Counted from the stretch's first letter, positions 10,613 to 64,000 are shown. The stretch: DNA of 64,000 bases from Candidatus Heimdallarchaeota archaeon (GCA_021399345.1 JAAFKI010000112.1:45753-109752), one strand, 5' to 3'. Made by a program: numbers and translations. Notes: a model not told the origin generated them from the sequence alone.

Positions 10613-13579
10613 TTATTTTTCAGGTTTTAAAATTATTCCTTCTCGTTTTTGAGCATCTATTCTAACTGTTAAAGAGTTTTTCAGCTCAATGTGTCTTACA
10701 AATTTCAAATCAGTTTTAGATTTTTGTTTGTTTAACCAATCCCAATCTATCTTATGATGCTCAGAATTGTGCTTAATATGGAAATACCCAATATTAGCTG
10801 ATACAATATTATGGAAGAAATGAGTGCCTTGAGAAAAATCAATTGAGAAACCTTCTAGAGTTGTCTCAATTATAGTTTTCGCTCCATTAATATTACTCCA
10901 TTTAGCAGGTATTCCTAAAAATCTATCAGCTGTCCCCCACCTACCAAAACCTATTAACAAGTAGGGGCGATTCTTCTTAGTTAATTGGGAATTTAGTAAA
11001 TCTATTTCTTCAACAATTTCTAGAGTTTTTGTCTTATCAAACATCTCTGCTTTAGCATAAACAATATCCTTGATATCCGAGTGGAGAAGGTTTCCCGACA
11101 CATGCGAAGAAAATGCTAAGATTTGATTAACATCTACAACCTCAAAATCATCTAACAAAAGAGCTTCTTGTTGTAAAAATGGTCTTATTTGTAATATAGA
11201 GAATTGATCCTTTTCGCTCTTCGAATTACTGAAGTTTCCAGCAAACTCAACTTCTATGGAAGAACCTAGAGCTCTTTCGCCAACAGATAAAATTCTGGTT
11301 ACCAATCTTGCTAAAGGTGTAGTTTCAAATTTTAATTGCTGATTGAATGTTATAACGGGGGATCCTTCACCAAAGAAACCGTCTTCTAAAGATTCTGTAT
11401 TGAAGTTATAATTATCTGCGATTTTAGATAAGGTTCCCTCTTTGATTGCATCTCCAAGGTGTAAGCGTTTAATATATGGATCATCATCTAGGATATCAAA
11501 TTCAGTTTTTGTTAAATCAACACAGTAGTAATATTTTTGGCTTTGGTCTAATAATAAATCAGGTGTTGAGTGGTAATTCAATTTAGGATATTTAGGACAA
11601 AACCGCACAGCAGATTCTCCTTCGACAATTGTTTTACCAAGTCCTAGAGCTAGATGCGCAATCCTATCTTCAGGTTTCATATAGTCTCCAAAGGGGTAAT
11701 AATTATATGAAGCAGCAGTTCCAGAGAAATCTGGATAATGATGATTGTGTCTCTCTTTCCCTACTACTCTTTGTATAACAACGGCCATTTTCGATTCTTC
11801 AACAGTCTGTTGAATGGTTTCTACATATGATTTTGCAAGTTTTAAGAATTGAGAGGCATAAACAAGTTTTATAGCTGTACATAGTTGCTCAAGCTTTTCC
11901 TTCTTACTTCCATGATTATTAGGAATCATATAAGTATCGAAAATTCCGGCGAATGGTTGGTACGCAGAATCTTCTAGAAGACTTGATGAACGAATAGCTA
12001 AAGGACCATCTAAATCTTTGAGTAAGAACGCTAAGTCATTTCTTAGACTCCTTGAAAGTTTGCTATTAACGAAGCTCTTCTTTATTTCAGAATCTGGAGC
12101 ATCTGATAAAGCGAATTCATATAGATTATTTTCTTCCATGAACTTATCATATTCATCAGTACCAATAACAATGGTTTTTGGAATTTCTATATTTACTGTA
12201 GGAAAATCATCTTTAATCATTAACGAGTTAAGGAGAAACATCAAGAAAGCAATCCCCCTTCCTTTTCCTCCTAATGAACCTGGTCGTAATCTTAGATATA
12301 GAGTCTCAGGATGATAATTATCTCGAGAGAAATCATTAATAACACCTCTTGTTTTTTCTATTACAATATTATCTATTGTTTTAATTAGAAAGTCTCTAAG
12401 CTCAATTTCAGTAAATTCAGAAACTTTCCGAGGTTTTAATGTTTCAGCAATATCGAATTCTCCTCTTGCATGTAACCAGTTGGAGAAATGATCACTTTTC
12501 CCATGATAAACTAAGGAATTTAAAGGTACTTCAGAAAGTTGCTTGTAAAAGGTAATGACATCAGTAGCATGACCATAAATATTGCCATCCTGATCTTTAA
12601 ATATGAACTCTCCAAATCCAACATATTCTAGAAGCCATTTCCGAAGATCCCACAGCATACCATGTGACCGTTTATGAATGAAATAACAGTGCATCTCTTC
12701 GGCTTGTTCTCGATAAGAATCTTTACTTGATTGTAGAACAATAGGTAAGTTGGGAAAATCTTTTTTTATTTTCTCTGCAAAGAGAAATCCAGCTTTTTTG
12801 TTGAGTTCGCCATCAAGTGGAAACTCGATATCTGAGATAACGCCCATTACGTATTCTTTATAACGTTCATAATATGACACAGCTTCTTCATAATTCTCTG
12901 CAAGCAAAATTTTTGGTCTTACTCGCATCTTGAGTAAATCCTGAAAATCATTTGTACCTTCAGTAATTAACCGATGAGTTTGCCTCATAATTTCTCCATA
13001 AACTTCTGGAAGCATTAGAGAATAGGACCTAATTGAATCATCAACAAAGATAAAAACTCTTACATTGCCAGCTTCTGTATCGAAATCCGCATTAAATCTA
13101 TCCTCAAGATGTTTGATAATAGCAATGAAAATCTTACTGTCTCCATTCCAAACAAAGACTCTATCTATACCTTCTCGTTTACTAAATTCTGGAAGATACT
13201 TGATTTCTACAACACTATTTAATAGAAGAATTACAGGAATATCTTGGATTTCCTTAACATTTGTCCCAAAAGAAAAAGCATCCATATCTCCTAATCGTCT
13301 CATGGTGATAACTAAATCAAACTTTTTCTCTTCTAGCATATCCAAGGCTTCATTTGCAGAAGATACCCGAGTAATTCTTGGTAGAGTTCGAAGATTGAGA
13401 TTTTGAAATTCTTCATAAATTTGATCAGATAATCGACCATCCTCTTCTAACATAAAACTATCATAAATACTAGAAACAAGAAGGACGTTTCTCATTCTTC
13501 TATTCATAAGTTCATGAAAGATTTTGTATTTTGGTTTATATTCTAGAAAGAAGCTAACTGCTTCTTGATCAGTAGTCAA
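10613..13579 (-). CDS. Large multidomain protein with receiver-like N-terminal modules and a PPDK_N (PEP/pyruvate-binding, ATP-grasp) domain
   Basis: The central region matches the N-terminal nucleotide-binding domain of PEP synthase and pyruvate phosphate dikinase (RLRPGSLGGKGRGIAFL ... LAIRSSSLLEDSAYQPFAGIFDTY). The N-terminal roughly 300 aa contains two CheY-like alpha/beta modules (RNVLLVSSIYD..., VRVFIFVDDS...). I found no phosphohistidine (GGRTSHAAI) domain and no PEP-utilising TIM-barrel domain. Confidence 0.7.
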   Translation of the reverse strand: MTTDQEAVSFFLEYKPKYKIFHELMNRRMRNVLLVSSIYDSFMLEEDGRLSDQIYEEFQNLNLRTLPRITRVSSANEALDMLEEKKFDLVITMRRLGDMDAFSFGTNVKEIQDIPVILLLNSVVEIKYLPEFSKREGIDRVFVWNGDSKIFIAIIKHLEDRFNADFDTEAGNVRVFIFVDDSIRSYSLMLPEVYGEIMRQTHRLITEGTNDFQDLLKMRVRPKILLAENYEEAVSYYERYKEYVMGVISDIEFPLDGELNKKAGFLFAEKIKKDFPNLPIVLQSSKDSYREQAEEMHCYFIHKRSHGMLWDLRKWLLEYVGFGEFIFKDQDGNIYGHATDVITFYKQLSEVPLNSLVYHGKSDHFSNWLHARGEFDIAETLKPRKVSEFTEIELRDFLIKTIDNIVIEKTRGVINDFSRDNYHPETLYLRLRPGSLGGKGRGIAFLMFLLNSLMIKDDFPTVNIEIPKTIVIGTDEYDKFMEENNLYEFALSDAPDSEIKKSFVNSKLSRSLRNDLAFLLKDLDGPLAIRSSSLLEDSAYQPFAGIFDTYMIPNNHGSKKEKLEQLCTAIKLVYASQFLKLAKSYVETIQQTVEESKMAVVIQRVVGKERHNHHYPDFSGTAASYNYYPFGDYMKPEDRIAHLALGLGKTIVEGESAVRFCPKYPKLNYHSTPDLLLDQSQKYYYCVDLTKTEFDILDDDPYIKRLHLGDAIKEGTLSKIADNYNFNTESLEDGFFGEGSPVITFNQQLKFETTPLARLVTRILSVGERALGSSIEVEFAGNFSNSKSEKDQFSILQIRPFLQQEALLLDDFEVVDVNQILAFSSHVSGNLLHSDIKDIVYAKAEMFDKTKTLEIVEEIDLLNSQLTKKNRPYLLIGFGRWGTADRFLGIPAKWSNINGAKTIIETTLEGFSIDFSQGTHFFHNIVSANIGYFHIKHNSEHHKIDWDWLNKQKSKTDLKFVRHIELKNSLTVRIDAQKREGIILKPEK

Positions 13580-24040: not shown

Positions 24041-24788
24041 CTAGAGAATTTCTATCCAAATCGGACCTACTGCAGAAACTCTCCCCATACTATAAAGAAT
24101 CCTTACAAAATAGAAATCAGCACCATTTGTATTAAGATTTGCAGGATTGATTGGAGTTTCAGATTCTTCATTGACATAATACCCTCCATTAATTTCTATA
24201 CTTCCATCATATGAAGCTCCAGTAATGTTTGTGTTGTCAAAGAAACTCAATTCAGTAACTGGTACATCAATAGATTGTTCTCTCCATAAATATCCGTTTT
24301 TAAAAATTTGAACAGTTGTACCCCAATCAGGGTCACTCAACCAGGGACTAGCTGCTTGTAAAAGTGCAGATTGCGGAGCACCATCTTGAGCCAAAAGTAG
24401 TTTTATTTCCCTAGTGCTTGTTGCATTAGCAACATAAACAGTTGAGTCGTCTTGACCAGCAATCACATCATTAATGCTAAAACGTATATAAGGGCGACCA
24501 AAATCCGAATTGGAAATGACTCGACGGTTGTAAAGTGCATTAAAAATACCGTCTCGAGTAAGTTCACTAACATAGGCACCTGTTATTCCACTGGGGTATA
24601 AATGTGATACTCTCGAAAGAAGGTATGTGTAAGGATACTGGTGCCCTGATGAAATAAAGCCAAGTCGCTGAACTTGCAATCATTATCATGCAAAGAGGAA
24701 TACAAATAGCAGTTACAAGTGCAACAAAGAAGAAACCTATACTTACTTTTCTTGCTGAAACATCATATTTGGAAAAATTAAAAGCCAC
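24041..24788 (-). pseudogene. Secreted hypothetical protein, apparently frameshifted (signal-peptide ORF plus body ORF in different frames)
   Basis: ORF 24567..24788 encodes only a signal/TM peptide (KVSIGFFFVALVTAICIPLCMIMIAS). ORF 24041..24679 continues in another frame without a signal peptide. The two overlap by 113 bp. The local GC content is slightly raised. Confidence 0.35.
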
Positions 24789-24930
24789 TTGTTATATTCA
24801 CCTGGATTTCTTAGATATAGCAATATTAAATGAAAGTTATAAAACTTCTCCACATTCAGATTCTTTGATAATTTTACAAGTGAAACAATTACAACTTCTT
24901 TAAAATTCAATTATATCAATAATAAATACA

Positions 24931-25317
24931 TTGGTTTTATATATTAGAGTTATACAAAAAATGGTTTTAGTTGCAAACCCAGCAGCTATTATATCTCTAC
25001 AATGGGGATACTTCCTCATATTAGGTGCAGCGGTTCTAGCAATAGTTAATTTTGGTGCGGCATTTCCATTTACAGCTTCAAAAAATGACAGAATTGCTAA
25101 ACCATTAAGCATAATTAAGGCATTAATTACAGCTTGGGCAATTCTATTCCAATTTGCTATAATAATAGCAGTCTTCGTTGGTCTTTACTTTGGATTAACC
25201 TACTTAGGAGTAGCAATAGTAAACACTATACTACTTGCAGTAGCAGGAGCTATAGCGGGCATATCTATCCTTGGAATGATATTTAGAATTGTAGACTATT
25301 TACTAGAATTAGAATAG
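24931..25317 (+). CDS. Small integral membrane protein (3-4 TM)
   Basis: A 128-aa hydrophobic ORF with no motifs. Confidence 0.45.
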   Translation: MVLYIRVIQKMVLVANPAAIISLQWGYFLILGAAVLAIVNFGAAFPFTASKNDRIAKPLSIIKALITAWAILFQFAIIIAVFVGLYFGLTYLGVAIVNTILLAVAGAIAGISILGMIFRIVDYLLELE

Positions 25318-25373
25318 TAAAATAACCTACTCTCATTTCTATCTTTTTTCATCAAAAATAAAAACAATATTAT

Positions 25374-25949
25374 CTATTGATTGTCTTTTTCGATAAAAGT
25401 AATTTTCTCTATTTTCTTATCACAATTAGGACAATTATGGTTATCAACAGTCCAGCTTGCTAAGTGAGAACGATGAAACTCGTGCATACAGGGTTCCACA
25501 ATTGCTTTTTCTTGTTTATCTAAAATTGCTTCATTACATATGGAACAGATAAGCTTAGAATCTGCTTCAACACCCTCTATTTCTTCATGTTGAATTCTAT
25601 CAGGAGGATTAACCTTATCTTCTCGCCTATATTTGTAACCTAGAAACGAAATAATGAAACCAGGTAAAGGACCAAAAACTATAGCAACAATAACTGGGAT
25701 GTGTATTACTGGTCTAATTCCCAAAACAGCAAACACTATCATTAAACCTGCAAAAAGTGCTCCAAAAATTACAGAGAGAAGTAAAAGAATGCCAGCAGAA
25801 CTTGTAGCATAACACCTAAAAGAACAATATGCTGTAGTTTTGAATGTCCAATAAACATTAACTGGACTTTTTCCACAAAAGGAACATTTTCTGCTCTTCA
25901 AATCCATATGCATAAGAAAATCATGTGTATATAAGTTTTTTATTAGCAT
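25374..25949 (-). CDS. Membrane-anchored zinc-finger protein with C-terminal RING-H2-like finger
   Basis: It has an N-terminal zinc ribbon (C-x2-C ... C-x3-C: CSFCG...CSFRC), two TM helices, and a C-terminal CSIC-x15-C-M-H-EF-H-RSH-x10-CPNC, which has the spacing of a RING-H2 finger (C3H2/3C3). Confidence 0.55.
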   Translation of the reverse strand: MLIKNLYTHDFLMHMDLKSRKCSFCGKSPVNVYWTFKTTAYCSFRCYATSSAGILLLLSVIFGALFAGLMIVFAVLGIRPVIHIPVIVAIVFGPLPGFIISFLGYKYRREDKVNPPDRIQHEEIEGVEADSKLICSICNEAILDKQEKAIVEPCMHEFHRSHLASWTVDNHNCPNCDKKIEKITFIEKDNQ

Positions 25950-26117
25950 TATAGAAACATTGGTCTAGGAAAAAAATAGCACAAACTTACACTAATAATC
26001 TTCTATAAAAACAATTGTAAATGTATTTTTTCTTCTTTCTGCAAAACTAATTAAATTGGTTTAAATCATTGAATTGTTGATAAAATCACAACTTTTCTAC
26101 CGAAGATTTATTATTTC

Positions 26118-44043: not shown

Positions 44044-44382
44044 TCATGCTTCTAAATTTGAATTTCTCTCTTTCAAAATTTCCAAAGATATCTCTAAAAG
44101 AAAGAAATCTTCAAGTTTTATCCAAGAAGTCTTAACAAGAATAGGGAACTCGTAAGATGTAAGGGATGTACATTTGTGGTTAGAATATGAGAAAATCTCA
44201 GGATGTCCTATTTCTCCACAGAGAAGACAAATTCGCCATCTTGCTGATGACATAGAAAGTTTTTGATAAGATTCAGAATAAAGTAATATTCCCTCTTCAA
44301 AAGGAATCTTTGACAAAATAGAACAGTATTTTTTAGCGATGGATCTTATTAGTTCTTTTTTCCTATCGGTAATGTCCGGCAT
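44044..44382 (-). CDS. Small conserved protein of novel 'MPDI' zinc-ribbon-like family (paralog 1)
   Basis: It has MPDITDRKKELIRSIAKKY, ARWRICLLCG-x12-HKC, and PILVKTSWIKLEDFF. It shares the family signature with four other copies in this window. Confidence 0.6.
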   Translation of the reverse strand: MPDITDRKKELIRSIAKKYCSILSKIPFEEGILLYSESYQKLSMSSARWRICLLCGEIGHPEIFSYSNHKCTSLTSYEFPILVKTSWIKLEDFFLLEISLEILKERNSNLEA

Positions 44383-45607: not shown

Positions 45608-46048
45608 TTATACTCGTTCTTTTTCAGTTGCAGGAATCTTCGTTTGTTCTGATTCCTTTGTTTCCTTTGATATTTTAGTAACCAAGGTCAGTGAGGGGAG
45701 TCTATCGATACCTGCTTCCTTCATGAAGTCCTTGTAAGTATCTGTTAAGAAGAATTCCTTTAGTTTATACCAAGAGGTTTTAATGAGAACCGGAAAATCA
45801 TGCACGTCTAATAAACATTTGTGCTTTTCTAACTCTTCTCCTTCCTTTAGATCTTTCTGGGTTTTGGATTTCAGTATATCTCCACATTTTAAGCAGAATT
45901 TCCACCTTGCGGGATGTATATTTAACTTTTCATTTGTTTTCACATAGAGAATCAATCCTTCGTTAAAAGGTATCCTCCAAATAGAGACAGCATATTGTTT
46001 TGCTATCTCCCTAATCTGTGATTTTTCAGCATCAGTTATATCTGGCAA
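45608..46048 (-). CDS. Small conserved protein of 'MPDI' family (paralog 2, probable TTG start)
   Basis: The ORF-track start at 46087 adds 13 residues. The family-conserved N-terminus (L)PDITDAEKSQIREIAKQYA begins at a TTG codon at 46048. It has ARWKFCLKCG-x19-HKC and PVLIKTSWYKLKEFF. Confidence 0.6.
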   Translation of the reverse strand: MPDITDAEKSQIREIAKQYAVSIWRIPFNEGLILYVKTNEKLNIHPARWKFCLKCGDILKSKTQKDLKEGEELEKHKCLLDVHDFPVLIKTSWYKLKEFFLTDTYKDFMKEAGIDRLPSLTLVTKISKETKESEQTKIPATEKERV

Positions 46049-46207
46049 TGAAAATCCTACTCCTACGTGTACTAGAATCTGACACATATAATAAATCTTC
46101 TGTATAACTTAGGTTTAATGATCTAGTAAGTAAATTATCTCAAATTATTGGAAAGTATTATAAAACCTGGTGAGTTAATATTGTGATTAAACAGTTGATA
46201 GAGCAAG

Positions 46208-48130
46208 ATGAAAGGAATTTTCGTTAAAGAGTTAGAAGAGATAGAATCGCTCATAGATAAGGGAAAGTATAACGTGGCTTTAGAGCATATTGATTCAACA
46301 TCATCTCAGGAAGCAATTTCTGCAGTGGAGAAGACAAAATGTACTATTTTTAGATATCGGGTATATTCTGAATTAGCTAAGTATGCTGAAGCTATAAAGC
46401 TTGGTGAAAAAGCCTTTGAGGAAAGCCAAAAACTAAATAATAAACACCTAATGTTTGATTCACTCGTATATTTTCCTTACATTTACTTTATTGCTGGAGA
46501 ATATGAATTGAGAAAGGAAAAAGTTAAACTTGCAGGTCAAATACTTGAATCAATTGAAGATAAAGATTCTTCAGATTATTTTCTCAGAAAAGCTATATTT
46601 CTAACTATGAAAAGTGATAGTTTTGAACAAGCTATAGAAAATCTTGAAGAAAGTATTGAAATCTCTAAGAAATTTGGATTTGATAGAATATTAGTTGATT
46701 CATACCATACGCAAGCTTGTACTTATCTTTGGTCTGGAGGAATCACAAAATCTCTTAAACTAAATCAACAAGCATTAGGTCTTGCTGAAGAAATAGATTA
46801 CTACTGGGGAATCACCAGTGCTATGTTTTCTTTAGCCGTTACCTATTTGCATAAAGGGGAATTAGAACAAGCCCTGGATTATTTCTTGCAAACAAAAACG
46901 CTAATTGAAGAAGGTGATGACTTATATTTTATAGCCTGCTTGTATTTGGATCTAGGTTATTTATATTGGTTAAAAAGAGATCTTAAATCCTCACTTGATT
47001 ATTATAAGAAATCTGTTTCCACTTTTAAAGAAGCTAAAGTTGTAAGTACACGTCATTTACCATGGACTCTATTCCGAATGAATTTAGTTCTTATTGAAAT
47101 GGAACATTATGATGAAGCACTCAAGAATATTGAACAGATTGAGCTCTTATTCCTAATGAAAGATACTCCTGTTTTCAAACTATTCTACCATCTTGCAAAA
47201 GCTGTTTTTCTTAAAACAAAAACAGATGATGATTGTTGGAATGAAGCTACACTTCTTCTCGAGGAAGTTGCTGATGAAGAACTTGTTTATCTTGAGTTAA
47301 ATGGTTTAGTAATCTTCCATCTATGTGATGTATATCTAAAGAAAATACAAACTTCAAATGATTTGGATGCATTTGGGAAACTAAAAAATAGGATACAAGA
47401 GTTAGCAGAAATGGCTAGAGAGCAAAAATCTGTCATTCTGCTTGTTCAATCTCTCTTGTTGCAATCAAAGCTAGAACTAATTGATTTAGACATTGAAAAA
47501 AGCCAATCGCTATTAGGAAAAGCACAATCTATTGCAGAGGAAAAAGGACTTACTAAACTTGCTAAGGTTGTTTCAAATGAATTTGATATTCTCTTAGATC
47601 AATTGAGTACTTGGGAAGATATGTCAACGTATTTACCAAGCTTAGAAGAAAGGTTTGAATTTACTCATATTGAAAATTATCTAAACAAAATGATGAGAGA
47701 CTATATTATACATGAAAGCATTGTTGATGAAGAAGAAGCACCAGTATTTTTCTTACTGCTGAATAAGGAAGGAGTCATTCTGTTTTCTGAGAAATTCAAT
47801 GAAGTATCTCTGGAAGGTGAATTACTTGGAGAAATATTATCATTTATCAATAGACTCAATTCAAGATCAATGTTTCCGTCTGAAACAACCAAGAGGATAA
47901 AACATAAAAATTATACAGTTGCGATTAATGCTCAAGAAGACATATTTCTAGTATATGCTTTCATTGGAAAATCTTATCATGCTTTGCAGAGAATAAATTC
48001 CCTCATCAAGGAATTTCGCACTTTTACAAGTGGGTGGCAGGAGTTTTTTGGTAAACTAAAGAACAAGGAAGAGTTGTCTTATTCTGATAGAAAACAATTA
48101 TCTGAATACCTAGAAGGTGTTTTTTTCTAA
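46208..48130 (+). CDS. TPR-repeat protein with conserved C-terminal alpha/beta domain (family member A)
   Basis: It has about 450 aa of TPR-like helical repeats and a conserved linker (LSTWEDMSTYLPSLEERFEFTHIENYLNKMM). Its C-terminal domain of about 130 aa (PVFFLLLNKEGVILFSE...IFLVYAFIGKSY) is shared with 48164..50302 and 56944..58890. Confidence 0.72.
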   Translation: MKGIFVKELEEIESLIDKGKYNVALEHIDSTSSQEAISAVEKTKCTIFRYRVYSELAKYAEAIKLGEKAFEESQKLNNKHLMFDSLVYFPYIYFIAGEYELRKEKVKLAGQILESIEDKDSSDYFLRKAIFLTMKSDSFEQAIENLEESIEISKKFGFDRILVDSYHTQACTYLWSGGITKSLKLNQQALGLAEEIDYYWGITSAMFSLAVTYLHKGELEQALDYFLQTKTLIEEGDDLYFIACLYLDLGYLYWLKRDLKSSLDYYKKSVSTFKEAKVVSTRHLPWTLFRMNLVLIEMEHYDEALKNIEQIELLFLMKDTPVFKLFYHLAKAVFLKTKTDDDCWNEATLLLEEVADEELVYLELNGLVIFHLCDVYLKKIQTSNDLDAFGKLKNRIQELAEMAREQKSVILLVQSLLLQSKLELIDLDIEKSQSLLGKAQSIAEEKGLTKLAKVVSNEFDILLDQLSTWEDMSTYLPSLEERFEFTHIENYLNKMMRDYIIHESIVDEEEAPVFFLLLNKEGVILFSEKFNEVSLEGELLGEILSFINRLNSRSMFPSETTKRIKHKNYTVAINAQEDIFLVYAFIGKSYHALQRINSLIKEFRTFTSGWQEFFGKLKNKEELSYSDRKQLSEYLEGVFF

Positions 48131-48163: not shown

Positions 48164-50302
48164 TTAAATAAGATATTGTTTAACAAGTGATGATAATTGA
48201 ATCCTAGTTTCTAAATCGATGTTTTTCTTATTTAGCACAAAATCATTCAGAGTATTTGTGATGTCAGAATCTGAGAAATAATCCACGAATCGGGTAAATT
48301 TCTGTTTAGCTAAAAATGATTTGCCAACAAAAACATAACAGAGGAATAATCCTTGAGATTTCGATAAAATACACATAAATTCACGAAATTTAATTCGAAT
48401 TATAGAAACATCAGTTTCTAATAGTTCTCTTCTTTCTAGAATCTTAGGATATAAATCTGAAAATTTGGTTTCCTCTAAAGTTCTAGATGAGAATGAATCT
48501 GAAAATTCTATTCTCCCCTCATTATTAAAAATTATAAAGAAAATAGGTTGTTCTTTTTCGATTATAACATCCGTGTAGTTAACCCATCTAGTCATCACTT
48601 TACTCAGAATCTCCTCAATGTGAGTTGTTTCAAAACGTTCTTCCAAAGAAGGCAAACGATCGGAAAGGTCATCCCAGACATCTAATTGTTCCAGAAGAAC
48701 ATCATATTCGTTAGAAATAAGTATCTCTAGTCTCTTCAATCCTTTTTCATTTGCTAGTTTTTGAGCTTCTTCAAGTACATTTAACGAATCTTCAACATTG
48801 AACTCTAATATAAATAATTTAGATTGTAAGAAATATAATTCTATTAATAATAAGAAGTTTTGATTACTTTCCGCTATATAGGAAAGATTCTTGATATTTT
48901 GTTTTAATTCTCCAATTAGTTTCATGTCCTTAGTATCTTTAAATTGTTCAAGTAAAATATCACAAAGATAAAGGTAGGATTTCTCTGTTGCTTTAAAGAA
49001 CGAAATTTGATCTTCAATCACTTTTTCAAAAATCTCTTTAGCTTTTGGTTGATTCTCTTTATTATATCTTAGAAAGATAGCCTGACTAACTTGATAATAA
49101 ATGGATATCCTCTTATTTGGATTTGACTCATTAAGTTTAGCTAGCTCAAACAAGTATTCTTCTGCTTTTACAAAATTTCTTTGTTCAGCATAAAATGTAA
49201 TTAGGTTGAAATAAGCCATCGCAACATGAATAGTACATTCATATTTTTGTCTAAATTCTAAGCTTTTCTTACTATATTCTATTGCTTGATCCAATTCTCC
49301 TTTTTGATAAAAAGTTTCTCCGAGATAGCCGTAAGCATCTCCCAAAGTAAGAAATTGTTTTGAATCGTGAAAAGCTTCCAGAACAAACTGATAGTTTTCT
49401 AGAGCTTCTGAAAGATTTCCATGGTAATAGTTTTTACACCCTCTGAGCAATTGTCTCCACCCCACATAAGAATCGCTACTTAATCCTTTCTCATAAAGAA
49501 TAGCCAACTCTTCATATTTTGAGCTATTAATCATGTCTCCACTATGAACATAAGCAAAACTCAAATGTATCATTGAATGCCATTTTCTATATTGAGAGGT
49601 AGATTCTTTTGCGTATTCTAAGTATTGAAGACCATAATCTATTGCTATTTTAAAGAATCCCTTTTCAGTATAAGCATACCTAAAGCAAGCTAAAGATCTC
49701 ATTATTAGCTCTTTATAATTGAGTTTTTTAGCAAGTAAATGCAATTCTTGAGATTTCTCTATAGATTTATCAGAATCACCCACATACATCAATGACCAAC
49801 ATAAATCATTCAAAAATTCTGAATAATAGAACTCTTCATTGAAATCTCTTATTATATTCAGAATTGTTTCTAAATAGTGGTTAAAAAGAGAGAATTGGAT
49901 ATTATACTTATATTGAAATTTTGTTTTTGCTTTTAACAAGATAATACATTTATGTCTTACTTCTTTTGATTGCTTTTTTAGCAAGTTTCTTGTTTTTAGT
50001 TGTAAAGTTTCAGGAATTTTGGAACTAGAATCCATTAATTCAATAATTTCTAATTCCATTGGTGGAGCAATATCTTCTAGAAGTTTATTTGTCTCAGCTG
50101 TTAATTCATCTCTGTCTCCAAAAAAATCAACTCTATCGATTAGAAGCATTCGCAAGATTAATGTTTCAAGCCTTTGAAAAGGGGTTATTCTGTCATTCTC
50201 TTCAATTTCTTTTATTAAGATTGAAAAGCTCCTGTGTTTTTCACTAATCAAGAACTTCTTAGCTAATTGTAAATTAGATTGTAGAGACGGCATTTGAAAC
50301 AT
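48164..50302 (-). CDS. TPR-repeat protein with conserved C-terminal alpha/beta domain (family member B)
   Basis: It has TPR repeats, a linker (LDVWDDLSDRLPSLEERFETTHIEEILSKVM) and the C-terminal domain (PIFFIIFNNEGRIEFSD...LFLCYVFVGKSF). Confidence 0.72.
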   Translation of the reverse strand: MFQMPSLQSNLQLAKKFLISEKHRSFSILIKEIEENDRITPFQRLETLILRMLLIDRVDFFGDRDELTAETNKLLEDIAPPMELEIIELMDSSSKIPETLQLKTRNLLKKQSKEVRHKCIILLKAKTKFQYKYNIQFSLFNHYLETILNIIRDFNEEFYYSEFLNDLCWSLMYVGDSDKSIEKSQELHLLAKKLNYKELIMRSLACFRYAYTEKGFFKIAIDYGLQYLEYAKESTSQYRKWHSMIHLSFAYVHSGDMINSSKYEELAILYEKGLSSDSYVGWRQLLRGCKNYYHGNLSEALENYQFVLEAFHDSKQFLTLGDAYGYLGETFYQKGELDQAIEYSKKSLEFRQKYECTIHVAMAYFNLITFYAEQRNFVKAEEYLFELAKLNESNPNKRISIYYQVSQAIFLRYNKENQPKAKEIFEKVIEDQISFFKATEKSYLYLCDILLEQFKDTKDMKLIGELKQNIKNLSYIAESNQNFLLLIELYFLQSKLFILEFNVEDSLNVLEEAQKLANEKGLKRLEILISNEYDVLLEQLDVWDDLSDRLPSLEERFETTHIEEILSKVMTRWVNYTDVIIEKEQPIFFIIFNNEGRIEFSDSFSSRTLEETKFSDLYPKILERRELLETDVSIIRIKFREFMCILSKSQGLFLCYVFVGKSFLAKQKFTRFVDYFSDSDITNTLNDFVLNKKNIDLETRIQLSSLVKQYLI

Positions 50303-51880: not shown

Positions 51881-52321
51881 TCATTTAGATTCTTCGGATA
51901 TTGCTTCAGAAACTTCTGTTTTGATCGCTTCGGCTTTAACTTGTTTAACAACAATTTTAAGTTTAGGTATCTCAGATAATCCAATCTCTTTTAGAATCTT
52001 ATTGTGTTGCTTTTGGATTAGGAAGAATTTTCGTAGTTGAAACCATGAGGTTTTTACTAATAAAGGGACATCTTCAAATTCCAAAATGCAAGAATGATTG
52101 ATTGTTTCATCCTTAGTTTTTGTATCTCTACCTAGAGTAGTTTTGAGAATCAAACCACATTTAAAACAATATCTCCATCTTGCGGGATGAATAAACAGTT
52201 CGTTGTTTGTTTTAACATATGCTACAATACCTTTATCAAAAGGGATAGTCCAAAGCTCTTGAGCATATTTTTTCGCTATTTCCCGAATTTCAGATTTATC
52301 TGAAGCAAGTATATCTGGCAT
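51881..52321 (-). CDS. Small conserved protein of 'MPDI' family (paralog 3)
   Basis: Starting at the internal Met (52321) gives MPDILASDKSEIREIAKKYA. It has ARWRYCFKCG-x19-HSC and PLLVKTSWFQLRKFF. Confidence 0.6.
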   Translation of the reverse strand: MPDILASDKSEIREIAKKYAQELWTIPFDKGIVAYVKTNNELFIHPARWRYCFKCGLILKTTLGRDTKTKDETINHSCILEFEDVPLLVKTSWFQLRKFFLIQKQHNKILKEIGLSEIPKLKIVVKQVKAEAIKTEVSEAISEESK

Positions 52322-52444
52322 GAGAATCACTCTTCTGTTGAGGGTGTACTAGAACAAGTTACATATAAGTTTTCTTTTATCTGAAAAAACCTCTTTTTGA
52401 ATCCATTGGAGTAGATTTAAGAAATAATATGCAATAACTGTTAT

Positions 52445-56524: not shown

Positions 56525-56947
56525 GTGATAACTCAAAATGACATGGTGAACATAATGACTGCTGAAACTGTGGAGTTGAAATTCGATCAAGAAGAGATAG
56601 ATAAAGCTGAGGAAGAATACAAGAAGCTTCATCTAGATCCTGCTCAACAAGACATGGTTGACTCCATAACAAAAATCATGAATGAACTGGTGCCAATACC
56701 TGAAGCAGCTATTAAGGGATTCACATGGAAAGTCATGAGTAATTGGCAGAGGATGCGTAGAATTACAATAGCCGAGTTAAATAATAGACCTCTAAGAGAT
56801 AGAATAGAGGTAACTAAAGAGATGATTAAGCAAGCAAAGAAATTTTTTGTTAGTCTTCTTTCAGAATCTACACCTGAGCAGAGAGAGATACTGGAAAGAA
56901 AGTTTGATACGGTTTTAAAACAAAGCTCAGAGTTATTGAAAAATTAG
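56525..56947 (+). CDS. Hypothetical protein
   Basis: A 140-aa helical ORF with no motifs. Confidence 0.35.
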   Translation: MITQNDMVNIMTAETVELKFDQEEIDKAEEEYKKLHLDPAQQDMVDSITKIMNELVPIPEAAIKGFTWKVMSNWQRMRRITIAELNNRPLRDRIEVTKEMIKQAKKFFVSLLSESTPEQREILERKFDTVLKQSSELLKN

Positions 56948-58890
56948 ACAAAGATTGATTCTAAATAATCAGATAATCTTGTTCTGTCAGACAAACTCAG
57001 TTCTTGATTGGAGTTTATTTTTGTGCTTAAATCACCCCAGATTTCTGAAAATGTGCTAAAATCAGTGATAAGTTTCTTTATTTTCTGTACAGCAGAATAA
57101 GATTTACCAACAAAGACATAACTAAGTAGCATATTTTCACTGTGATAAAGAACTATGCCAAAATTCCTAAATTGAAGACGATAAGAAGTGTTTTTATCAG
57201 GTTCTTTTTCTTCTAGAAAGTCATGTATTGTAGTTATTATCCCCTCAACTAAATCATTTTCTAGAGGAATATCTTCAAAATTATCTGAAAAGACAACATG
57301 ACCAGTTTTATCCATAATCAGGAAAATACTTGGATCTTCAATTTCATGAGAAACATCTGCAAAGCTTATTCTATTCTTAATTAGCTTATTCATCATATCC
57401 TCTAAATGAGTTAACTCCATACGATCAGCAATATTTGGAAGTTTAGTAGTGAAACTTTCCCAGCTGCTAATTTGTTCTAGAAGATGATCGTATTCATTAG
57501 AAATTAGTGTCGCTAAGCGAGTTATACCTTTTTCATCTGCAATATTTTGGGCTTTTTCTAACATTATTTTTGCTTCTTCAATTTTAAGTTCTATTAGTGC
57601 TAAATGAGATTTGAGCATATAGGTTTCAGCAAGTAAAACCGATGATTTCTGCTTTTTTGCAAGTTCATCTAGTTGATTTATAGTTTGTTTAAGAGGTAAA
57701 AGCAATTCTAAATCGTTGGTCTGTTTCAATCTTCGAAGATAAAAATCACATAAATGAAATAAAGCCATCCTGTTCATTTCTATATAAATCAACTTCTCTT
57801 GAACAATCTCCTTCAACATTTTTTCTATTTTATCTTGATTATCATCAAAAGAACGCGCTTTAAGATAGATAGATTGAGCTAGATTGTAAATATGCACTAA
57901 GGGATAGCTTTCAACACTTGCATCTTGCAAACTTCTAATAGTAGCGACTATTTCCATTTTTTCTAAGTTTTGTTTTATATCTTCGTATTTTCCTTGTTCA
58001 AGATAAACTAAATTTGTTCTGAAAAGTACAGCAAGATAATGTCTATTTCCAAAAAGCTTCCCTCTTTTTATTTGCCCTAACGATTTCTTATAATATTGTA
58101 ATGAAGTTTCCAATTCCCCTTTTTGCCAATAATAGAACCCTAAATCAGCATATATTGCACCCAAGCTGTAAGAAGAATCAATCTCTTCCGCATATGATAG
58201 TGCCTTCAATGAGTATCTAAGATATTCGTCTAGTTCTCCTTTTTGAATAAAAACTGCTGCAATATTAGTTGTACATGCAATAATTCCCACAATATTACCT
58301 AGTTCTGTAAAAATCTTCAAACTTTGATTATAATAATTCCCACTCTTAGAATAATCCCCCTGTTCAAAAAAAGCATAAGCTTTGCCAAATAGATGCCAAG
58401 CTTTCTGATACTCGTCTCCTACTTGTTCAAATATATCTATAGCTTGATCTATTTTATCCATGTATTTTTCTGATCTACTACTAATCCCAAATGTAAGAAT
58501 TCTTGCTTTCCTTTTGAGATATTCTGGTGATTCTTTATCCTTGTATTTTTCAAGAACTTCTATTGCATGCTTCATTTTTTCGCTAGCTGATTCGCCTATG
58601 CCTAAGTAGCTAGAGGATCGAGCATAAGCCATAGCTGAATCGAAAATTAAGAATGTATCACCGATTTTGACACTTTTTTCATAAGCTTGTTTAGCATTTT
58701 CTAATGCCTCAGAGAATGGTTGAATATCGAGAAATATTTTTGCTTTGAGGATTTTTGCTTGAATAATTTCTTCTTCAAGAAGTTCCTTTCTTTTCAGAAG
58801 ATTATTCAATTGTTTTAGAGATTCTTGATACTTACTGCTAATAATTAATTGTTCTATTTCTTTTAGTTCAGTAGAAAATACCCCTTTCAT
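56944..58890 (-). CDS. TPR-repeat protein with conserved C-terminal alpha/beta domain (family member C)
   Basis: Its N-terminus MKGVFSTELKEIEQLI parallels MKGIFVKELEEIESLI of member A. It has the linker ISSWESFTTKLPNIADRMELTHLEDMMNKLI and the C-terminal PSIFLIMDKTGHVVFSD...LLSYVFVGKSY. Confidence 0.72.
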   Translation of the reverse strand: MKGVFSTELKEIEQLIISSKYQESLKQLNNLLKRKELLEEEIIQAKILKAKIFLDIQPFSEALENAKQAYEKSVKIGDTFLIFDSAMAYARSSSYLGIGESASEKMKHAIEVLEKYKDKESPEYLKRKARILTFGISSRSEKYMDKIDQAIDIFEQVGDEYQKAWHLFGKAYAFFEQGDYSKSGNYYNQSLKIFTELGNIVGIIACTTNIAAVFIQKGELDEYLRYSLKALSYAEEIDSSYSLGAIYADLGFYYWQKGELETSLQYYKKSLGQIKRGKLFGNRHYLAVLFRTNLVYLEQGKYEDIKQNLEKMEIVATIRSLQDASVESYPLVHIYNLAQSIYLKARSFDDNQDKIEKMLKEIVQEKLIYIEMNRMALFHLCDFYLRRLKQTNDLELLLPLKQTINQLDELAKKQKSSVLLAETYMLKSHLALIELKIEEAKIMLEKAQNIADEKGITRLATLISNEYDHLLEQISSWESFTTKLPNIADRMELTHLEDMMNKLIKNRISFADVSHEIEDPSIFLIMDKTGHVVFSDNFEDIPLENDLVEGIITTIHDFLEEKEPDKNTSYRLQFRNFGIVLYHSENMLLSYVFVGKSYSAVQKIKKLITDFSTFSEIWGDLSTKINSNQELSLSDRTRLSDYLESIFV

Positions 58891-60918: not shown

Positions 60919-61134
60919 GTGATTGGGAGAATTATCAATATGAGTGAACAGACTAAATTACTAAAAACATGCTGTGGGGGAGAACTTCCTGCAAAAGAAG
61001 TCACAACGATCTATAAAGGTAAGAAATTGTTTTTTTGCGATACACCTTGCTTAGATCTTTTCATAAAAAATCCTGAAAGGTTTTTGGCTTCGACTCATTT
61101 TCGTCTTAATTTTGAAGAACTAGAAGATGAGTAA
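60919..61134 (+). CDS. YHS/TRASH-like small metal-binding domain protein
   Basis: It has CCGGE...IYKGKKLFFCDTPCLDLFIKNPERF, matching the y-x-G-x-x-Y-F-C-x-x-x-C-x-x-x-F pattern of YHS domains. Confidence 0.45.
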   Translation: MIGRIINMSEQTKLLKTCCGGELPAKEVTTIYKGKKLFFCDTPCLDLFIKNPERFLASTHFRLNFEELEDE

Positions 61135-62774: not shown

Positions 62775-63134
62775 GCCAGATATACCAAATAAAGAAAAAC
62801 AAGAGATCAGAATATTGGCAGAGGATTTCAGTTGTTTAATTGCAACCCTTTCATTCAAAAAGGCTCTTATATCTTCTATGAAGTTTTCAAGTCTCTCTAT
62901 AGTAGATCAGCTAGATGGAGATATTGTTTGATTTGTGGTAATATAGATTTACCTACGGATTTTATCCATAAGGATCCAAACTACCCCCAAGTATCTTGTC
63001 ACAAAATCCAGTCACTAATACCAACTTCTTGGATGAAACTAAGAGATTTCTTCATTAAAAGTAATTATAAGAAACTCCTCAAAGCAATGGGGGTTCAAAA
63101 TGTAGAAAAAAAGACAACCAGTGCCTCTAATTAA
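62775..63134 (+). pseudogene. 'MPDI' family paralog 4, frameshifted
   Basis: An ATG at 62775 gives MPDIPNKEKQEIRILAEDF... and then a stop at about 62928. The conserved remainder (ARWRYCLICG...SCHK...IPTSWMKLRDFF) continues in ORF 62832..63134 in another frame. Confidence 0.45.
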
Positions 63135-63161: not shown

Positions 63162-63638
63162 TTAGGATGTCTCCCCAATTTTTATTGCTTCAGGCAATTT
63201 GTTTTCTTCTGCAACTGCAAATATTTCGCGTATTATTGGTATCTGATCCGGTTTGTCTGTTACTCCTGCATTTTCTAGAGCTCTTATATGCTTCTTTGAC
63301 ATGAAGAAGTCTCTCAGTTTATACCATGATGTAGTAATTAAAACAGGAAAACGATTCGTACCTAAAGTGCATTCATGGATTCTCTCTTTTAATTCAGATT
63401 TCTTCTCTTCTGAATACTTATCACCACCAAGCTCTCCATCATCAATCATCAACTCGGTGGGTTCAATAATCCCACACTTAAGACAGAATTTCCACCTGGC
63501 AGATCTAATATACAGTGCTTCAAAAGTTTCTGAATAAACTAATAGCCCTTCATTGAAGGGAGATACCCATAATCCCATTGCATAGCGTCTTGCAATTGAT
63601 TTTATAAATGATTTTTCAGCATTTGATATTTTTGGCAT
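63162..63638 (-). CDS. Small conserved protein of 'MPDI' family (paralog 5)
   Basis: Starting at the internal Met (63638) gives MPKISNAEKSFIKSIARRYA. It has ARWKFCLKCG-x31-HEC and PVLITTSWYKLRDFF. The upstream 55 codons of the ORF-track model are not conserved in the family. Confidence 0.55.
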   Translation of the reverse strand: MPKISNAEKSFIKSIARRYAMGLWVSPFNEGLLVYSETFEALYIRSARWKFCLKCGIIEPTELMIDDGELGGDKYSEEKKSELKERIHECTLGTNRFPVLITTSWYKLRDFFMSKKHIRALENAGVTDKPDQIPIIREIFAVAEENKLPEAIKIGETS

Positions 63639-64000
63639 ACTACACCCCTTGCCATTATGATTGAATCCATACCGACATATTAAGGTATCTCTATAACCTC
63701 TGCATAGATATCCGAAGATATAATAGTGAATCTGAAAGCACTCTTCCAAAATAGGTAAATATGAGGTATATATTATGTAAAAAATAATTGATTCTCGTTT
63801 CAAGATTCAAAAAAAAAAATGAATTAAGGACTAATATTCAACATGATACTTAAAATGACTGAGATAAAGCAGATAAGGAGAGCAATCCAATTACTATTAA
63901 AACACATATGGAGATAGCATAAACTAGAAACATACCAAAATAGGATCTTGCTTTTTCCATTCTAGCTTTTCTTTTTATCTGATTAATATTTGACATCATT

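Follow-up and report, generated by a model that had tools for sequence, protein, structure and literature searches.

A small Heimdallarchaeota membrane protein, a candidate E3 ligase, bearing a eukaryote-type RING-H2 finger

A 64,000-nucleotide stretch of DNA from Candidatus Heimdallarchaeota archaeon (GCA_021399345.1, JAAFKI010000112.1:45753-109752; here denoted the window) contains, on the minus strand at 25374..25949, an open reading frame (ORF) of 191 amino acids, whose residue numbering is used throughout. Within this ORF lies a real, conserved Heimdallarchaeota gene; the small membrane protein that it encodes carries a RING-H2 zinc finger of eukaryotic type. The product is rather likely to be a membrane-tethered, single-subunit RING-H2 ubiquitin ligase (E3), with an N-terminal finger and the RING both in the cytoplasm. 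We infer the E3 activity and put it no higher, because the loci carry no ubiquitin genes and the linchpin Arg is replaced by Asp. Among the eukaryotic signatures accepted for Asgard archaea are RING E3 ligases; those studied so far are soluble and encoded in ubiquitin/ESCRT clusters. Through a conserved, membrane-inserted RING-H2 protein with an Asgard-specific membrane module, the ubiquitin toolkit of archaea would reach the membrane as well, where eukaryotic RING ligases govern quality control and trafficking.

The C-terminal RING-type finger

The finger is encoded at 25422..25547 (minus strand, like all features of this gene given below) and carries the pattern C135-x2-C138-x15-C154-x-H156-x2-H159-x2-H162-x10-C173-x2-C176. 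All eight putative ligands are Cys or His, and their spacing fits the RING consensus C-x2-C-x(9-39)-C-x(1-3)-H-x(2-3)-H-x2-C-x(4-48)-C-x2-C; when the protein was shuffled 200,000 times, the pattern never appeared. An earlier reading made from the DNA sequence alone had described a RING-H2 finger of the C3H2C3 type in which a His possibly replaces one Cys. The spacing of that class holds, and the replacement is found at the sixth ligand, His162; the strict C3H2C3 assignment gives way to a C3H3C2 variant.

Profile searches place the domain among RING fingers. Pfam zf-RING_2 (PF13639) matched residues 135-176 at E=6.4e-7, its 30.0 bits exceeding the cut-off of 27.3, and zf-C3HC4 matched with 21.7 bits against a cut-off of 21; together with zf-RING_11 these models headed the ranking, and zinc-ribbon models stayed at E>0.05, so that the comparison of RING with other treble-clef or ribbon classes favoured the RING-H2 models. 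A phmmer search of all PDB sequences gave RING E3 ligases as its sole top matches, led by ZNRF3 (9e-8) and Arkadia (3e-7) and followed by RNF165, RNF24, RLIM, HRD1, gp78, RNF38, EL5 and RNF13. The residue alignments to these structures kept all eight ligands in register. They also aligned the E2-contact positions I137, W166 and P174, which are conserved in the family, to their counterparts in ZNRF3 and Arkadia, Trp166 falling on the E2-binding Trp of both. Past the finger, a C-terminal tail (25377..25421) contains an invariant I-E-K-I-x-F segment (residues 180-185), predicted to form a beta-strand, with Asp177 at the linchpin position.

Structure prediction pointed to the same family. The AlphaFold model of the RING alone (residues 128-191) had a predicted local distance difference test score (pLDDT) of 84.4 and a predicted template modelling score (pTM) of 0.65. 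Foldseek superposed this model on the best RING E3 structures with a template modelling (TM) score of about 0.69 and a root-mean-square deviation (rmsd) of 1.9-2.2 Å over about 55 residues, and the matches comprised RNF8, RING1B, Cbl-b, TRAF6, LNX1, RNF38, gp78, RNF13 and Arkadia (TM score 0.6-0.7, rmsd ~2 Å). Almost all of the best 50 were RING or U-box E3 domains, and no non-RING treble clef stood among the top matches. In the model of the full-length protein, two long helices, interrupted at residue 93, precede a C-terminus that resembles a RING; this model matched RNF8, Cbl and RING1B/BMI1. A cross-brace RING fold is predicted, and the AlphaFold check proposed in the sequence-only reading bore it out at the level of the model, by superposition on the RINGs of RNF8, RING1B, Cbl and RNF13. 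Sequence and modelled fold agree in assigning the domain to the RING family, as had been proposed, with ZNRF3 and Arkadia nearest in the PDB. Two zinc ions would be bound in cross-brace fashion, one by C135, C138, H159 and H162 and the other by C154, H156, C173 and C176.

The likeness to eukaryotic RING-H2 E3s (ZNRF3, Arkadia/RNF111, RNF165, RNF24, RNF13 and the plant ATL protein EL5) extends over ligand spacing and modelled fold, and includes a 'PC.H.FH' core, a Trp four residues after the sixth ligand and a 'CP.C' end (E=1e-7 to 1e-2). Many of these ligases are also membrane-anchored with a cytosolic RING. The window protein differs from them in its His at ligand 6, in the Asp that takes the place of the linchpin Arg, and in its archaeal host. 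Its anchor differs as well, being a two-helix hairpin that follows a TRASH/FCS-like finger, with no large ectodomain. The GLD motif of ATL proteins is absent between the second transmembrane helix and the RING, and Pfam found no PA domain of the PA-TM-RING kind.

Membrane hairpin, N-terminal finger and conservation

Kyte-Doolittle hydropathy gave two hydrophobic stretches, residues 54-76 and 82-105, in agreement with the two transmembrane helices of the sequence-only reading. The first (TM1, 25722..25790) is helical in the model and carries the invariant residues L55, L56, L58, S59, F62 and F66. The second (TM2, 25635..25706) contains the modelled helix break, which falls in an invariant FGPxPG motif, F92-G93-P94-x-P96-G97 (residues 92-97, 25659-25676), a putative intramembrane kink. 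Lys and Arg residues number six before TM1, one in the five-residue loop and six across the 29 residues that follow TM2. Under the positive-inside rule such a distribution predicts an N-in/C-in hairpin with the RING and the N-terminal finger in the cytoplasm, an orientation that the two zinc-thiolate domains would also require. The hairpin would thereby anchor the protein of ~177 residues in the cytoplasmic membrane with both fingers facing the cytoplasm.

The N-terminal four-Cys finger (25812..25886), predicted to be cytoplasmic, has the pattern C22-x2-C25-x16-C42-x3-C46 within the motif CxxCG...W...[YF]CSxRC, and its four Cys are invariant; the ribbon seen there from the sequence alone is thus present. 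Pfam returned matches below threshold only (Arc_trans_TRASH, zf-FCS, zf-FLZ, TRASH_ZMYM4, Ribosomal_L24e, HIT and VATC), which nevertheless keep to a single class of finger. A profile built from 22 fingers of the family matched archaeal and eukaryotic eL24 fingers along the entire profile (E=4.7e-4 to 8e-3) and the FCS finger of PHC1 at E=0.015; its many C2H2 matches were confined to the first CxxCGK knuckle. The finger shares with TRASH, FCS and eL24 fingers the motif C-x2-C ... [FY]-C-S-x2-C, and differs in being fused directly to a transmembrane hairpin and in its 16-residue spacer, against C-x2-C-x(19-22)-C-x3-C for TRASH/FCS. With Pfam matches below the cut-off, we tentatively class it as TRASH/FCS/eL24-like. 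Elsewhere in the window, a small ORF at 60919..61134 (plus strand) contains a putative domain of the TRASH-clan YHS family, at 27.9 bits against a Pfam cut-off of 30.3.

The resemblance to the TRASH class, together with the proposed role of TRASH domains in metal sensing, raises the idea of a membrane Zn/Cu sensor or chaperone, with exchangeable metal sites in the TRASH-like finger and in the His-rich RING; the variation of the sixth RING ligand among His, Cys and Glu fits it. We consider this very improbable. The structural fingers of eL24 and PHC1 match at least as well as the metal-trafficking families do, and the finger stays below the Pfam thresholds for TRASH and YHS. In the related loci the gene is not flanked by any metal transporter or metallochaperone gene, and the zinc sites of the RING fold are fixed and structural.

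Conservation was assessed on seven sequences, the window protein and six homologues, 46-98% identical to it, obtained by a word-index search. All twelve metal ligands (eight of the RING and four N-terminal Cys) are invariant, as are W166, P174, the C-terminal IEKI-F strand and many intramembrane residues. Among nine orthologues the ratio of nonsynonymous to synonymous substitution rates (dN/dS) was obtained for 35 pairs and lay at 0.12-0.35 in 34 of them; the exception, 0.53, came from the near-identical pair of the window and locus L011, with very few substitutions. By this measure the gene is under purifying selection.

Where sources are named, the family is Asgard. All six matches in species-representative genomes were metagenome-assembled genomes (MAGs) of Candidatus Heimdallarchaeota, with amino-acid identities of 87-91% for five and 66% for the sixth. 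The surrounding DNA is 88-95% identical at the nucleotide level to Heimdallarchaeota MAGs over kilobases, and so the Asgard-like origin guessed for the contig was right. An exhaustive profile search of 1.84 billion representatives yielded 1,695 matches at E<=1e-3, most of them to the RING only, and about 10 clusters (178-203 amino acids) that match over the whole length. Every full-length relative with a named source is Asgard (Heimdallarchaeaceae, Heimdallarchaeota, "Asgard group archaeon" or Thorarchaeota), and several bear the NCBI label "RING finger domain-containing protein". The best named RING-only match is a plant E3 ligase. Five RING-only matches (P0012, P0022, P0027, P0031 and P0090) have 5-8 RING matches per polypeptide, the named one being a Nymphaea 'E3 ubiquitin-protein ligase'.

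Within the family, ligand 6 is His in the window clade, P0023 and P0121, and Cys in P0008, P0039 and P0068. Many distant members, P0011, P0017, P0025, P0041 and P0079 among them, carry an additional CxxC...CxxC ribbon inserted after TM2 and ahead of the RING, which recalls the flanking zinc fingers needed for RING activity in LNX1/2. Paralogues also occur side by side: two RING genes adjoin in Heimdallarchaeaceae (L010, 10001..11184), and a RING-less copy adjoins a RING-bearing one in an 'Asgard group' MAG (NPD90318.1/NPD90319.1).

The similarity of the RING to eukaryotic RING-H2 domains could in principle betray eukaryotic contamination of an archaeal bin, or the ORF could be spurious. Such an artefact is refuted by the synteny of the gene in more than 10 independent Heimdallarchaeota assemblies, by its archaeal BRE/TATA-like promoter (both described below), by dN/dS values well under 1 and by the exclusively Asgard sources of the named full-length relatives.

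Ligase activity and its alternatives

The proposed ligase would act by the standard RING mechanism. A surface formed by Ile137, Trp166 and Pro174 would recruit an E2 charged with ubiquitin or a ubiquitin-like protein, the RING protein would modify membrane or membrane-proximal proteins, and the FGPxPG-kinked hairpin and the N-terminal finger may select the substrate or a partner. At the level of sequence and model, the domain identity, fold, ligand set, E2-contact residues, membrane anchoring and purifying selection are established; zinc binding, E2 recruitment, ubiquitin transfer and substrate choice are inferred.

The literature reports ubiquitin-system genes in the lineage. Asgard genomes encode E1, E2 and RING E3 proteins, and a Helarchaeial cascade has been reconstituted in vitro (10.1101/2023.07.25.550441). 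The ubiquitin cascade is encoded in Asgard genomes, Heimdallarchaeota included, and the heimdallarchaeote AB125 has E2 homologues with the catalytic Cys (PMC9192718). An operon-encoded RING-H2 E3 of Caldiarchaeum is reported in a passage of PMC11354881 that cites PMC5654768.

Several observations weigh against ligase activity. Around the gene itself the machinery is missing: Pfam detected no ubiquitin, UQ_con, ThiF or JAB domain in the RING protein and 40 other ORFs of the window, those further large ORFs that were checked having been identified by eye or through precomputed Pfam annotation of their orthologues in related loci, and no ubiquitin, E1, E2 or deubiquitinase gene was found in the window or in the flanks of 13 related loci, with ~170 kb of related sequence covered. 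The RING departs from strict C3H2C3 identity at ligand 6, and in the distant members P0011, P0017, P0025, P0041 and P0079 this position is Glu. At the linchpin, where active ligases were expected to show Arg or Lys, the alignments set Asp177 against the Arg of ZNRF3 and Arkadia, and relatives have Asp, Asn, Gly or Lys after ligand 8; loss of the Arg may mean weak intrinsic activation of the E2~Ub conjugate. Some active RINGs lack this residue. The full-length AlphaFold model is of low confidence (pLDDT 58.8). Finally, the finger and two-helix module occurs without a RING, also as tandem duplicates, in Thorarchaeota and other Asgard MAGs, and it must therefore have a role of its own.

The absence of ubiquitin-system genes extends to other searches of these loci. 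Precomputed Pfam annotation of five related loci contained no ubiquitin-system domain except a ThiS gene in L010. A tblastn search of the window and the 13 loci with sequences of human ubiquitin, UBE2D2 and UBE2N and of E. coli MoeB gave chance-level matches only; the best of them (L006, E=0.15) lies in a 248-amino-acid membrane or secreted protein and was rejected.

These points lend substance to a different reading, in which the RING is a non-catalytic, zinc-stabilised interaction module and the protein a membrane adaptor or scaffold, based on the Asgard-specific finger and hairpin module and unrelated to ubiquitin transfer. It would account for the RING-less modules, the missing linchpin Arg, the lack of ubiquitin machinery in the window and related loci, and the conservation of transmembrane residues, which equals that of the RING. 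We regard the scaffold as unlikely. The whole family conserves the E2-contact residues, namely the Ile lying between the first two ligands, the Trp past the sixth and the Pro past the seventh; the sequence is nearest to active RING-H2 E3s. The Asgard RING proteins tested so far are active E3s (10.1101/2023.07.25.550441). It remains a serious rival all the same, given that the linchpin is missing, the sixth ligand is odd, no ubiquitin genes are co-located and the finger and hairpin module is autonomous.

The protein could instead be an E3-like factor for another modifier, such as a UFM1 homologue, a SAMP/Urm1-type protein or another Asgard beta-grasp protein. Asgard archaea possess several ubiquitin-like systems, UFM1 homologues included (PMC12962969), and the ThiS-family beta-grasp gene of L010 lies 2.4 kb from the tandem RING paralogues. 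That gene, however, adjoins genes for thiamine pyrophosphate (TPP) enzymes, which suggests a sulfur-carrier role. RING domains pair with UBC-fold E2s in the transfer of ubiquitin, SUMO and NEDD8, and the UFM1 and SAMP pathways are not known to use RING E3s. We judge this alternative improbable.

On balance we retain the membrane-tethered RING-H2 ligase as the working explanation, and known systems help to place it. The archaeal operon RING E3s (Caldiarchaeum subterraneum, PMC5654768; Asgard, 10.1101/2023.07.25.550441) are likewise prokaryotic RING-type proteins of lineages with eukaryote-like E1 and E2, and presumably recruit E2 by the same mechanism. They are soluble and encoded beside ubiquitin, E1, E2, deubiquitinase or ESCRT genes. 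Compared with them by description, the window protein is membrane-embedded, and its neighbours are genes for GH3 and GH2 enzymes, an ATP-binding cassette (ABC) transporter and membrane proteins.

MARCH proteins and RNF5/RNF185 also combine a cytosolic RING with a two-helix hairpin, and the MARCH hairpin selects membrane-protein substrates. Their RING is N-terminal and of the C4HC3 (MARCH) or C3HC4 (RNF5) type, whereas that of the window protein is C-terminal and of the H2 type; neither MARCH nor RNF5/RNF185 occurs among the listed PDB sequence matches. The RNF/MARCH-like label of the sequence-only reading accordingly fits the membrane-tethered RING architecture, but the defining features of those families are lacking.

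RING E3s in Asgard archaea are already known, and public annotation calls relatives of this protein RING-finger proteins. Full-text literature searches found no paper describing transmembrane RING proteins in Asgard archaea; as far as these searches reached, the Asgard-restricted architecture and the C3H3C2 ligand set are undescribed. It is conceivable, and we offer it only as a tentative proposal, that the protein is the first representative of a family peculiar to Asgard archaea, in which a TRASH/FCS-like finger, a conserved two-helix hairpin and a RING are joined in membrane-embedded RING-H2 ligases that ubiquitylate membrane proteins for their ESCRT- or Cdc48/proteasome-dependent removal. 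If so, ubiquitin-dependent turnover of membrane proteins, with the logic of endoplasmic-reticulum-associated degradation (ERAD), MARCH and ATL, would be present in the archaeal relatives of eukaryotes. At 177 amino acids the protein is small and tractable for asking whether Asgard E2s are recruited to membranes. The practical gain is modest, as the domain is annotated automatically in public MAGs and the mechanism is the standard RING model.

Gene boundaries and genomic neighbourhood

The most likely coding sequence is 25374..25907, comprising 177 amino acids and a TAG stop, with Met15 (ATG at 25907) as its probable true start. This start was deduced from eight orthologous loci, aligned over the DNA upstream of the gene. 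Every orthologue translation begins at the Met15 position, where L008 has GTG in place of ATG. Among L001, L002, L003 and L006 the upstream ATG is changed to AAG, ATA or ACA, and Met13 to AAG. The 191-residue protein of the sequence-only reading was therefore real as an ORF and in its motifs, and about 14 codons too long at the 5' end. An exact look-up of the 191-amino-acid ORF matched no contig; gene callers start the protein further in.

Codons 1-14 (25908..25949) overlap the promoter and are probably not translated: a DNA block there is invariant though the ATGs are lost in several loci. The seemingly conserved segment 'LIKNLYT' is the translation of an invariant DNA block, AAAAAACTTATATACAC. 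The block TAATAAAAAACTTATATACAC is invariant across the eight loci, whose proteins are 46-98% identical, the locus with the 46% identical protein included. A BRE (transcription factor B recognition element)/TATA-like promoter element spans 25928..25941, with an A-rich BRE-like run at 25935-25941 and a TATA box, TTATATA, at 25928-25934. The spacing between TATA box and start is an established rule for archaeal promoters, and since TTATATA lies 27 nucleotides upstream of the ATG at 25907, the arrangement would imply a leaderless or near-leaderless mRNA. At the other end, 10-20 nucleotides past the stop, the T-tract TTTTTATTTTT (25354..25364) resembles archaeal terminators and may serve as one. 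Rfam and tRNA scans of the window found no RNA genes; its G+C content is 33.7%.

In the orthologous loci the order is a divergent GH3 gene, an ABC ATPase, an ABC-2 permease, the RING gene, a variable segment, GH2, S-Me-THD and a flavin adenine dinucleotide (FAD) oxidase, and the GH3 ... RING ... GH2 synteny recurs in the more than 10 assemblies mentioned above. The paralogues of L010 lie in an unrelated gene context. The ABC ATPase and ABC-2 permease pair stands between the GH3 and RING genes in all nine orthologous loci with upstream sequence. It is absent from the window, where blastn breakpoints and tblastn placed a junction at 25957..25985 (no strand assigned) from which the 1.69-kb pair is missing. 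On the other side, the convergent neighbour at 24931..25317 (plus strand) is the 3' two-thirds of a conserved 176-amino-acid multi-pass membrane protein, as alignment to L007, L008 and L009 shows; tblastn covers only its residues 57-171 in the window. Where present, this protein has a mean column identity of 82%, and it is absent from L001, L011 and L012.

A functional link of the RING gene to the ABC-2 pair or to the 176-amino-acid protein was considered and downgraded, as the pair is missing, the membrane protein is truncated or absent, and the RING gene is served by a promoter of its own. This gene is what stays constant in the locus, and its function is therefore not tied to these neighbours; with its own promoter, and intact while neighbours come and go, it would work independently of them.

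The segment between the GH2 and RING genes (24041..25317) varies between strains and looks like gene remnants. Its part at 24041..24679 (minus strand) aligns to loci that have there genes for a 160-amino-acid protein, a DUF3604 protein (586 amino acids) and a 372-amino-acid protein, all missing from the window.

Other regions of the window contain further families of paralogues. Five small paralogous ORFs of 100-213 amino acids lie at 44044..44382, 45608..46087, 51881..52330 and 63162..63803 (minus strand) and at 62832..63134 (plus strand); four are 33-45% identical to 44044..44382. Common to all five is the motif PF.EG...ARW[RK].C[LF].CG...TSW.KL..FF, and Pfam matches none of them. They may represent a lineage-specific zinc-ribbon family expanded in this genome. 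Three paralogous proteins of 640-712 amino acids (46208..48130, plus strand; 48164..50302 and 56944..58890, minus strand) have tetratricopeptide repeat (TPR)/MalT-like repeats and, by eye, a common C-terminal domain of ~130 amino acids without a Pfam match; one weak RPN7-like match was seen among them. An ORF of 988 amino acids at 10613..13579 (minus strand) joins a response-regulator receiver to a PPDK_N domain (phosphoenolpyruvate-utilising, ATP-grasp), an unusual fusion.

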